A DNA stretch of 64,000 nucleotides from a virus, in the IMG/VR virus record IMGVR_UViG_3300050821_018050, positions 1 to 64,000 of that record, one strand, 5' to 3'. The position numbers and the translations under genes are program-made. The notes below the pieces were generated by a model. That model was not told where the DNA came from and searched no databases. It worked only from the letters and a program-made list of their open reading frames with translations. Below, piece by piece: positions 50,038 to 54,889 of the stretch; position 1 is the first letter of the stretch; every line of letters begins with the position of its first letter.

Positions 50038-52611
50038 ATGGCATTTAGTTCATTACTTATTACAAAAGAAACACCAGATCGTTCTAATGAACTTTTGAAA
50101 AATGAAACGGATTCAGGCACCTTCTTTAGAAGTGTTACTACTTATTCTGATCCGAGTACCACTTACGCCAAAAACGTTAGTGCTGGATACGTAAAAATCG
50201 TAGAATCTGATTTAGATTTTATTACTGCGACTGGACTTACCCCATTAACTACATGGGCATGGCAATTAGACAGTTCAAGTCAAACATTTAATGGATCAGA
50301 CAATAAAATTACTTTAGTTTATAAAATTGCATTAAACGGTGGACATTTTATTTATCGCACCATAACGGAATATCGCGATACCAGCAGTAATTTGATCAAA
50401 AACGCCGATGAATCAATTAAAAGTTCATATCCATCTGGCGGAGGTGGCGGCGCAGTTGCGTCTGTTTTCGGTCGCACAGGTGCAGTATCCGCTCAAACAG
50501 GAGACTATACAGCTACACAAATAGGTCTCGGCAATGTAAATAACACTTCAGACGTTAATAAGCCCGTTAGCACGGCCCAAGCGGCAGCAGACGCCGCAGT
50601 ACAAGCGTATGCGATACAACGTGCAAATCAAACAGGTACACAAACCTCTTCTACCATTTCAGATTTTACTCCAGCAGCGTTGGCTGCCGCAGAAACTGCT
50701 TTAGGAACTGCAAACGGTTTTGCATCTTTGGATGGATCTGGCAAGTTAACCTCTTCTCAAATTCCTGCGTCGGTTATAGGTGCTTTGAGTTACAAAGGCA
50801 CATTAGACGCTTCAGTCGGATCGTATCCAGCATCCCCAGCAAAAGGTGATTATTATGTAATTAATGTGGCTGGTACAATCGTTGGACACGTGTATAATAT
50901 TGGCGATTGGGCAGCTTATGATGGGACTCAGTGGGATTACATTGACAATACCCAAAATGTAGTCTCGGTTGCCGGTAAGACAGGAATTGTTACTTTAGCT
51001 CCATCTGATGTATCTTTAGGTAATGTAAATAATACTTCAGATGTTAATAAACCGGTTAGTACCGCACAAGCTGCAGCAGATGCTGCGGTTGAAGCATTTT
51101 CTATTCAACGTGCTAATCATACAGGATCGCAAACTGCTTCTACGATTTCCGATTTTAGTACAGCTGTAGCATCTACCGCAGCACTTAAAGCTAATAATCT
51201 TTCTGATCTAGCTAGCGCATCTACAGCTAGGACTAATTTAGGCTTAGGCACAGCCGCTACTCAACCAACCTCTGCCTTTGATGCTTCTGGAGCTGCTGCA
51301 GCAGCACAAGCTGCAAGCGATCCTTCTGGTAGCGCAGCAGCCGTATTAGCCTCTTCTTTACAGAAATCTTCTAATTTATCTGATTTGGCCAGCGCTTCTA
51401 CAGCTAGGACTAATTTAGGGTTAGCCGCTGTAGCTGCGACAGGAGCATATTCAAGTTTATCAGGAACTCCTTCTGCATTACCGCCAAACGGAGCAGCCGG
51501 TGGATCTTTAGCAGGAACTTATCCTAATCCATCTATTGCTGCGACTGCAGTCACCGCAGGTACATATGCAGCTGCAACCATTACTGTAGGTGCAGATGGT
51601 CGTATTACCGCAGCATCTGCCAGTGGAGCTTCTACACTGCCCACTTATCAAGCTAGCTTTAATAGCGAGTATAATGTTTTAACGAGTTATGCCGGTGGAT
51701 CGAGCGACGGATCTCTAGCAAAACCATACACCACCGTTCAAGCAGCAATTAATGCTGCGATCACTAATGGCGGTGTGAATAATGTTGTTTTGATGCACGA
51801 CTCTTCGACTGAAAATCTTACAATCAATAATTCTACGGCTGGCCTTTTAATTACAGCAGCCGTCTCGAATACTGTGGATAGTCAGCGAATTGCTTTAAAT
51901 GGTAATATTACCATTAGCGGAACCAGTACGCGAGTAAAAATCAAAGACATTAATGTGTTATTCCCAGGCGGAACCTCCCCGGATCTAATTGATACTTCGA
52001 CTGGCGGTAGACATTATTATGCTAATGTAGGATTCCAAGGCGGCGGAGGTATTCAATTTAGCGGTTCATGGGCGAGATGGCATGAGTTTACGGATTGCAC
52101 CATTTCAGGTGCAATTAGTATTGCAGGAACTCCGGCAGCTAATTCTTCTATTAGTTGCTGGCGTGTGCGAGGTGGTGGAAACTATACTGTAAATGCCACG
52201 AATGCAACATTAAATTTATATGACAGTTTTTCAGTCGGAAATATTACGCAAACAGCGGGTGTTTTAATTATGGACGGAGGTCGTAACTTTGTTGCGGGAT
52301 CTTCCATTACTTCTACTACCAATGGGGCTGGCGATTTAATGGGCATCAGTAATGTTAATTTTGAAACAGGTGCAGGAACATATTACATCATCAATAAAAC
52401 CGGTACTTCTCCATATATTCTATCTAACGTTCTTCGTAATCAAACTAGTGATACTTTAACTGGAACGAGAGTAAATTACGGATCTTCGGCTACTGATTTC
52501 AGATATGTTCCTGCTAACTCTGGTAATTGGTCAGGTACTGCCCCAGCAAATATTGCTAGCGCTATTGATCGTATTGCTGCAGTTGTAGGTAATCCTACCC
52601 CTATTCCTTAA
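50038..52611 (+). CDS. Tail fibre/appendage protein
   Basis: VASVFGRTGAV, two LGNVNNTSDVNKPVSTA, two NLSDLASASTARTNLGL, GTYPNP, DGS..KPY.TVQAAI plus beta-helix C-terminus. Confidence 0.8.
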   Translation: MAFSSLLITKETPDRSNELLKNETDSGTFFRSVTTYSDPSTTYAKNVSAGYVKIVESDLDFITATGLTPLTTWAWQLDSSSQTFNGSDNKITLVYKIALNGGHFIYRTITEYRDTSSNLIKNADESIKSSYPSGGGGGAVASVFGRTGAVSAQTGDYTATQIGLGNVNNTSDVNKPVSTAQAAADAAVQAYAIQRANQTGTQTSSTISDFTPAALAAAETALGTANGFASLDGSGKLTSSQIPASVIGALSYKGTLDASVGSYPASPAKGDYYVINVAGTIVGHVYNIGDWAAYDGTQWDYIDNTQNVVSVAGKTGIVTLAPSDVSLGNVNNTSDVNKPVSTAQAAADAAVEAFSIQRANHTGSQTASTISDFSTAVASTAALKANNLSDLASASTARTNLGLGTAATQPTSAFDASGAAAAAQAASDPSGSAAAVLASSLQKSSNLSDLASASTARTNLGLAAVAATGAYSSLSGTPSALPPNGAAGGSLAGTYPNPSIAATAVTAGTYAAATITVGADGRITAASASGASTLPTYQASFNSEYNVLTSYAGGSSDGSLAKPYTTVQAAINAAITNGGVNNVVLMHDSSTENLTINNSTAGLLITAAVSNTVDSQRIALNGNITISGTSTRVKIKDINVLFPGGTSPDLIDTSTGGRHYYANVGFQGGGGIQFSGSWARWHEFTDCTISGAISIAGTPAANSSISCWRVRGGGNYTVNATNATLNLYDSFSVGNITQTAGVLIMDGGRNFVAGSSITSTTNGAGDLMGISNVNFETGAGTYYIINKTGTSPYILSNVLRNQTSDTLTGTRVNYGSSATDFRYVPANSGNWSGTAPANIASAIDRIAAVVGNPTPIP
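50527..51156 (+). repeat. Duplicated ~47-aa fibre module (about 50527-50667 and 51016-51156)
   Basis: Near-identical peptides differing mainly at synonymous positions. Confidence 0.8.
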
Positions 52612-54573: not shown

Positions 54574-54743
54574 TGTACTTCTACTCCGTTTTTGTTTAAG
54601 TATGATTCGAGCCCAGCGAGGATACAGAAAGTCTGTATACTTTTCTCGTTGTTGCAGTCAAATCTACCTTGTTGCATAAAGGCAGTGTGGGCAAATGTTT
54701 TGATCTCTTGAATTGCCTTATCATCGATCTCAACTTTATCCAT
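54555..54743 (-). CDS. Hypothetical protein
   Basis: 62 aa, SD AAGGAG immediately after the tRNA-like CCA. Confidence 0.7.
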   Translation of the reverse strand: MDKVEIDDKAIQEIKTFAHTAFMQQGRFDCNNEKSIQTFCILAGLESYLNKNGVEVQWKLKK

Positions 54744-54759: not shown

Positions 54760-54854
54760 TGGTGTCAAAGTGTGGATTGGAACCACATTACCGAGTTTAT
54801 CTCGGACTAAGAATTAGCAAAACCCTCGCAGAGTTCACACCTCTGTGCTTTGAC
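54760..54854 (-). tRNA. Non-canonical tRNA-like RNA, 95 nt, long variable arm, 9-nt anticodon loop (Ser-GCT-like, ambiguous)
   Basis: Acceptor GTCAAAG/CTTTGAC plus ACCA; D arm CAGAG/CTCTG; anticodon stem GAGGG/TTCTT with loop TTTTGCTAA; variable arm CCGAG/CTCGG; T arm TGTGG-TTCCAAT-CCACA. Confidence 0.8.
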
Positions 54855-54860
54855 ATAACC

Positions 54861-54889
54861 AGGATAACACGACTCATCTAATCTGTCAA
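54861..54889 (-). promoter_or_regulatory. sigma70-type promoter for the tRNA-like RNA operon
   Basis: TTGACA-N17 (ending TGT)-TATCCT; 6 nt before G1 of the RNA. Confidence 0.75.

Follow-up and report, generated by a model that had tools for sequence, protein, structure and literature searches.

The window analysed here comprises the first 64 kb (64,000 nucleotides) of a 159.8-kb phage record, which has a GC content of 39 %, is 99 % complete and is of probable soil origin. Among cultured phages, Myxococcus phage Mx1 is the closest (capsid identity 52 %). The minus strand of the window carries, at 54854-54760, a 95-nt tRNA-shaped non-coding RNA, recognized by its fold, its homologues and their covariation. 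It is flanked by a divergent 149-aa gene on one side and by a leftward operon of small uncharacterized ORFs on the other, and the locus immediately precedes the tail-assembly genes. At the default score ARAGORN makes a single tRNA call in the 160-kb genome, at this locus, and labels it tRNA-Ala(TGC); the program reported no second tRNA, and the phage has no tRNA cluster. An Rfam scan of the window gave neither a tRNA nor any other credible match at the RNA. A Logan contig from the probable source run has identical letters and is not independent of the record.

The RNA is preceded on the same strand by a sigma70-type promoter (54889-54861) with a -35 box at 54889-54884, a 17-nt spacer and a TG-extended -10 box at 54866-54861, which ranks first among the consensus sites of an 11-kb region (10/12 plus the TG extension). 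The predicted transcription start, 54854, is the first base (G1) of the RNA and lies 6 nt past the -10 box. The genome contains 61 promoter-like sites, 25 of which have an ATG within 12 nt, and in 14 of these 25 the spacing is exactly 6 nt, so leaderless genes are common in this phage. Because the spacing of leaderless ATGs in the genome peaks at the same 6 nt, G1 is very likely the transcription start. The first-pass annotation had pointed to this shared spacing and to an ORF directly after the CCA, and both observations proved correct: a Shine-Dalgarno (SD) sequence at 54753-54748, 6 nt past the CCA, precedes a 62-aa ORF (54743-54555, minus strand, ATG at 54743) encoding a two-helix phage protein.

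The window copy consists of a 7-bp acceptor stem, a 5-bp D-like stem, a 5-bp middle stem with three G.U pairs, a 5-bp variable stem and a 5-bp T stem. The 5' strand of the acceptor-like stem (54854-54848) pairs with 54770-54764, and all seven pairs show compensatory changes in the family. The C8-A9 linker and D-like arm (54847-54829) follow, with a 5-bp stem and a 7-nt loop, G-Y-R-N-G-R-A, of invariant columns, in which R (54838) is the equivalent of position 18 and G (54836) that of position 19. The anticodon position is occupied by a hypervariable arm (54827-54809), here of 5 bp with a 9-nt loop (54822-54814), of which the basal pairs alone are kept in the family. The segment 54808-54788 holds an invariant AGU junction, a variable-arm-like hairpin opened by CC/GG and a 3-nt linker ending in A; the T-like arm (54787-54771) has a 5-bp stem ending in G-G/C-C and the loop Y-K-Y-V-A-R-U. 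The element closes with the acceptor 3' strand, A73 and an encoded CCA (54770-54760). The cloverleaf is the minimum free energy fold of the window copy (z -2.4), in which the 9-nt loop zips to 5 nt. All of the tRNA-like features listed by the first-pass annotation (acceptor, T and variable stems, CCA, C8, A73, the stem with three G.U pairs and the 9-nt loop) were verified on the minus strand. Its description of a D loop without the usual GG placement calls for one correction: counterparts of G18 and G19 appear to exist at 54838 and 54836, with one base between them.

DNA searches with the window copy failed to reach homologues. Exact-pattern scans of viral and metagenome contigs with its 3' end gave no match, blastn against phages gave short chance matches only, and a pattern scan of GTDB genomes returned no family member; relaxed patterns recovered two phage copies, in G001 (160 kb) and G003 (139 kb), together with real tRNAs and chance matches. 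Homologues were instead reached via the neighbouring proteins, giving 10 further distinct copies in related phages (L001, L009, L045, L046, L047, L049, L050, L051, L071 and L066, where L009 is the G001 copy and L066 the G003 copy). The RNAs are 87-120 nt long, and each of three genomes that are complete or nearly so has a single copy. L046, L071 and L066 were absent from the training of model R1, with which they score 54, 73 and 29 bits, respectively; family members other than L066 score 54-98 bits with the family model, and real tRNAs score below 30. Neither the RNA nor the 62-aa gene is present in Mx1. No Rfam family matches the tRNA-shaped RNA, and a literature search returned no paper on the RNA family or on Mx1. 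A 47-kb phage carries, upstream of its terminase gene (L082:936-1068:+), a 133-nt folded RNA that starts 6 nt after a strong -10 box and is closed by a 9-bp stem, with a T arm of canonical form and the AGUCC...CGG module seen in the family; it scores 16.5 bits with R1 and gives no match with a second model, R2, and is a distant cousin at most.

The five-helix cloverleaf is maintained by selection and is not decaying. In the alignment of all 11 sequences, which was fitted to the model, 96.4 % of cells are paired and 18 of the 23 pairs show compensatory changes, a result reached in 0 of 500 shuffles. An alignment of eight sequences made with MAFFT, and not fitted, gave 97 % of cells paired and compensatory changes in 15 of 23 pairs, and slid controls paired at most 48 % of cells, the ceiling for the 11-sequence alignment being 47 %. 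The first-pass annotation had held that the intact stems argue against simple decay and had named covariation in related phages as the check, and the family agrees with it on this point. Decay of a tRNA into a pseudogene, or a misassembly, could be suspected from the non-canonical positions, the low Rfam score and the derivation of the exact sequence from a single sample; this reading is refuted by the covariation, as the stems are repaired by compensatory changes and the same non-canonical core is invariant where the neighbouring 62-aa protein is merely 26-55 % identical across the phages carrying the RNA.

The 7 + 5 bp acceptor/T stack is kept across the family. Little or no variation is seen in C8-A9, in the pairs C10-G and G14-C that close the D-like stem, in its G-Y-R-N-G-R-A loop and the C that follows the stem, in the AGUCC junction, in the GG/CC on which the T loop sits, or in A58 and U60. 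C8 and G14 are invariant in 10 of the 11 copies, position 55 is U or G, and position 57 is C in the window copy. C8, the additional 14-21 pair and the unvarying AGUCC are foreign to tRNAs. The variable arm spans 11-40 nt and can be as short as 2 bp. The discriminator is A in eight members and C in three; CCA is encoded in 3 of 11, and a C follows the discriminator in 8 of 10. Many Mx1 tRNA genes likewise have no encoded CCA, so its absence from a gene does not rule out addition by the host.

The middle arm varies from 9 nt (L047, 3 bp and a 3-nt loop) through 13 nt (L050 and L001) to 26-27 nt (L051 and L049), and the family has no triplet in common there. The 9-nt loop of the window copy is therefore one state of a drifting arm, and these comparisons show the anticodon arm to be free of constraint, with selection acting on the tRNA body alone. 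The first-pass annotation would have taken a normal 7-nt loop in homologues as the sign of a sequencing error or recent pseudogene; the loops of the homologues run from 3 nt up to long hairpins. Its readings of the loop as a Ser, Ala or Gln anticodon do not survive the comparison, and with them fall a frameshift-type tRNA and a decoy for anticodon nucleases, both of which rest on an anticodon loop that the family does not keep. Such decoding roles draw on the ARAGORN call of tRNA-Ala(TGC), the encoded CCA of the window copy and a CAT triplet in two homologue loops; the 3-nt loops of L047 and L050 are too small for an anticodon, others are long hairpins, and the Rfam tRNA model has no match at the RNA position in the window or in eight scanned homologue loci. 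A decoding function is refuted at the family level and has a negligible probability.

The D-like and T-like loops vary together at one position. The third base of the D-like loop is G where T-loop position 55 is U (n = 4: the window copy, L050, L009 and L045) and A where position 55 is G (six copies), with no mixed state. This pair ranks first of 153 column pairs, with an uncorrected p of 0.005 that fails correction for 153 tests, and it is the 18-55 pair that a tRNA structure would predict. The protein tree places the G:U copies in two distinct clades, both of which have an A:G sister (node support 79-99), so the covariation, over 10 sequences, comprises only two independent changes. L066, the most distant member, has a 3-nt loop on the D-like stem, which makes the same contact impossible there. 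The canonical interloop pairs are G18-U55 and G19-C56 (PMC6337575). Of the 91 tRNA calls scored in the loci examined, one has G55, and its D loop reads AG where GG is usual. The geometry of an A18:G55 pair is compatible with T-loops, and a literature search returned no paper stating such a swap. Judged from the alignment, a fair though not conclusive basis, the D-like and T-like loops likely dock as a tRNA elbow, R18 with K55 and G19 with Y56, and the molecule probably folds into an L shape.

Three other likenesses were examined and rejected. The D-like loop had been considered as a complement of the tRNA-Met anticodon loop and as the partner in a kissing interaction with the RNA's own "anticodon" loop, and both ideas fail on homologues that read GUAGGAA or GCGCGAA. 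The resemblance to helices 52-53 of 23S rRNA is no more than loose, and the best match of the family model in E. coli 23S rRNA scored 9 bits (E 1.9).

The RNA probably originated from a class II tRNA, that is, one with a long variable arm. It resembles canonical class II tRNAs (tRNA-Leu and tRNA-Ser; RF00005) in arm order, the 7 + 5 bp stack, the 2-nt linker, the long variable arm, the one base between the D-like stem and the next helix, T-loop A58 and the probable 18-55 and 19-56 contacts. It differs from a canonical tRNA in that no anticodon loop is kept, position 8 is C and not U, G14 pairs with C21, three unpaired invariant bases precede the variable arm and six members have A18:G55; the canonical D and T loops of tRNA-Leu are absent. 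The canonical set of U8, A14, G18G19 and U54-U55-C56-R57-A58 is not found in the family, and the G001 copy scores 19 bits against the RF00005 gathering cut-off of 29.

Bacterial LeuRS reads A73, the long variable arm and the elbow, and does not read the anticodon. The RNA could accordingly be imagined as a chargeable, non-decoding tRNA, most likely for Leu, serving as an amino-acid donor outside the ribosome or as a sink. The A73 of most members, the long variable arm, the elbow and the C that usually follows the discriminator would suit such a role, as would the AGUCC junction, which is similar to the junction between anticodon stem and variable arm in some tRNA-Leu genes (L075 and L078). The C73 of three members, a variable arm of anything from 2 bp to 40 nt, the missing U8, A14 and A15:U48 and the freely varying acceptor pairs tell against it, and we regard charging as very doubtful. 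The two viral contigs just named (L075:3463-3572 and L078:824-933) hold the 3' part only of a tRNA-Leu(CAG) and are probably attP sites.

Allo-tRNAs have an 8/4 or 9/3 acceptor branch and keep the anticodon, and some have been proposed to be non-translational (Mukai et al., PMC5389517). Like these and tRNA-Sec-like molecules, the phage RNA has a long D stem with a small loop (5 bp and 6-7 nt) and a long variable hairpin, and such molecules too occur in soil bacteria and phages; it differs from allo-tRNA and SelC* by its 7/5 branch (L046 can form 8/5) and by having no anticodon.

The RNA has the sense orientation at each of the 11 loci, and an SD sequence follows it within a few nt. Eight copies share the same promoter, with G1 exactly 6 nt after the -10 box. 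In the other three (L051, L071 and L066) the RNA begins a few to about 20 nt past the stop codon of the upstream gene and has no clear promoter of its own; the operon promoter of L051 and L071 lies several hundred bases upstream. The next gene at these three loci is unrelated to the 62-aa ORF, which sits one or two genes further, and over the family the downstream gene varies by lineage among three unrelated ORFs. A position-1 start in one lineage and an internal site in another would be expected if the exact mature 5' end is important and RNase P is able to free the RNA (PMC4919922, PMC4201824). In L051 (932-1309) and L071 (2860-3478) the RNA stands just 3' of a gene with a WYL_2 domain, in an early operon ending in an Rrf2-like gene.

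The first-pass annotation had also suggested a structured mRNA leader, which is a possible reading, though three homologues lie between genes of an operon and ahead of unrelated genes. In a wider form, the RNA would be a cis-acting mRNA element, a tRNA-shaped cap that buries the 5' triphosphate and stabilizes the early transcript, with the internal copies acting as operon punctuation cut by RNase P and RNase Z. The invariable sense orientation and nearby SD fit this reading, as do the failure to find a terminator after the window copy and the poor conservation of CCA and discriminator. The RNA-run data, which consist of depth-2 contigs only, include a single contig at the RNA, which extends from the variable arm past the CCA and into the ORF (54796-54646); it fits an unprocessed transcript or DNA, and contigs of this depth reveal no discrete RNA, strand, ends or level. 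Against a cis role, the downstream gene changes among three unrelated ORFs, the other early promoters of the phage start leaderless genes without such a structure, and a plain hairpin would suffice as a cap, the invariant unpaired bases suggesting a more specific partner. We consider a cis element an unlikely explanation, though one to be taken seriously.

The gene for the 62-aa protein adjoins the RNA or sits within about 550 nt of it at 11 of 11 loci, a figure affected by ascertainment, as most loci were found through this gene. In two further phages (L072 and L073) the gene is present and no copy of the RNA lies within 6 kb of it. The 62-aa protein is confidently modelled (pLDDT 93) as a helical hairpin of amphipathic character, and a comparison of the model with the PDB gave no match, including none to a solved RNA-binding fold. 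Its family comprises at least 37 clusters at 50 % identity, and one member has been annotated automatically as a CO dehydrogenase subunit, a label that looks wrong. The second operon gene, a 113-aa ORF (54573-54232, minus strand), occurs in the promoter-proximal clade only and belongs to no family; a C-terminal motif region is highly conserved across eight phages and the fold model is poor (pLDDT 68). An assignment as an anticodon-binding domain was rejected, being a weak Pfam match (E 0.016) in one of eight homologues. The neighbouring proteins have no PHROG or Pfam family, and Atlas searches gave nothing usable.

This neighbourhood invites the reading that a phage protein uses the RNA as a scaffold or regulatory site; the 62-aa protein, for instance, might bind the AGUCC core in an RNP or for autoregulation. 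The proximity of gene and RNA at every locus, the lack of both in Mx1 and the invariance of the unpaired core speak for it; the ascertainment, the two loci with the gene alone and a helical hairpin unlike any solved RNA-binding fold speak against it, and it appears quite improbable.

Several known RNAs offer partial parallels. The T4 species 1 and 2 RNAs (rnaC and rnaD) are also phage RNAs; they carry the annotation small and stable with no function given, and rnaC combines a T arm with the lack of an ordinary anticodon arm. They differ in lying within a tRNA cluster, in length (119-139 nt) and in fold, and score at most 11 bits with R1 and give no match with R2. YrlA, a bacterial Y RNA, is a tRNA elbow mimic without an anticodon, occurs in phages and is a substrate of tRNA enzymes; it is circularly permuted, has a Ro60-binding stem and is encoded beside the Ro60 gene (PMC4201824). 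The phage RNA, by contrast, has the normal arm order with ends that form an acceptor-like stem, and the 99 %-complete genome has no match to the TROVE/Ro60 gene (PF05731). The tRNA-like mascRNA and menRNA and the C4 RNA of phage P1 are cut from longer transcripts by RNase P, and mascRNA also by RNase Z (PMC4919922). By analogy they may serve as a model for the processing proposed here; the phage RNA has no Rfam match to either kind, and no antisense target loops were seen in it. Mx1 itself has three tandem tRNA-Arg genes called by ARAGORN and not annotated in its record (51522-51739, L004:6523-6740), with shrunken D arms and low Rfam scores, as well as an ARAGORN tmRNA call and a TROVE gene.

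The explanation we prefer, tentatively and as a chain somewhat short of probable, is that of a non-decoding tRNA mimic acting as a free tRNA-body decoy; the fold is well supported, and the release and the decoy role are inferred. Weighing against the chain are the RNA-run contig that reads into the ORF, an elbow covariation of two events, the 3-nt loop of L066 and the features that are foreign to tRNAs. The early promoter would place the RNA within the operon transcript, with its 5' end set at position 1 by the transcription start in eight copies or by host RNase P in the three internal ones. Host tRNA-maturation nucleases would then free the 3' end from the downstream mRNA, and CCA might be added. 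RNase P is known to cut tRNA-like RNAs that are not tRNAs, including the phage C4 RNA (PMC4919922), and among the main features that direct this cleavage is a 7-bp acceptor-like stem (PMC4201824). Handling by host tRNA enzymes is on balance slightly favoured. The released RNA would be a stable look-alike of the tRNA body early in infection, occupying host proteins that read the elbow or acceptor while itself staying out of translation, and it may thus act as a decoy for such proteins. Candidate targets are tRNA-targeting defence toxins or nucleases; a search among the neighbours for a target protein or defence link found none. A more specific version is a phage counter-defence RNA, present as a free mimic from the onset of infection. 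Its elbow would be rewired (A18:G55 or G18:U55) and its AGUCC core private, and it would titrate a host defence or stress protein reading the tRNA body while being immune to anticodon nucleases, possibly together with the 62-aa protein; we offer this version as speculation and think it rather improbable.

The RNA family is uncatalogued, while the tRNA-shaped, non-decoding kind of RNA is itself already known. The usual explanations for phage tRNAs are codon supply and the replacement of tRNAs cut by host defences. The phage lineage described here has no tRNA cluster and retains a single tRNA-shaped RNA, with a decoding arm that drifts freely. For annotation it carries a warning, since ARAGORN labels such genes as ordinary tRNA-Ala. 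A compensatory swap at the elbow pair occurs naturally in the family, which would also provide a small, single-copy and self-promoted case in which to address the role of non-decoding phage tRNA mimics, a question that dates from the T4 species 1 RNA.
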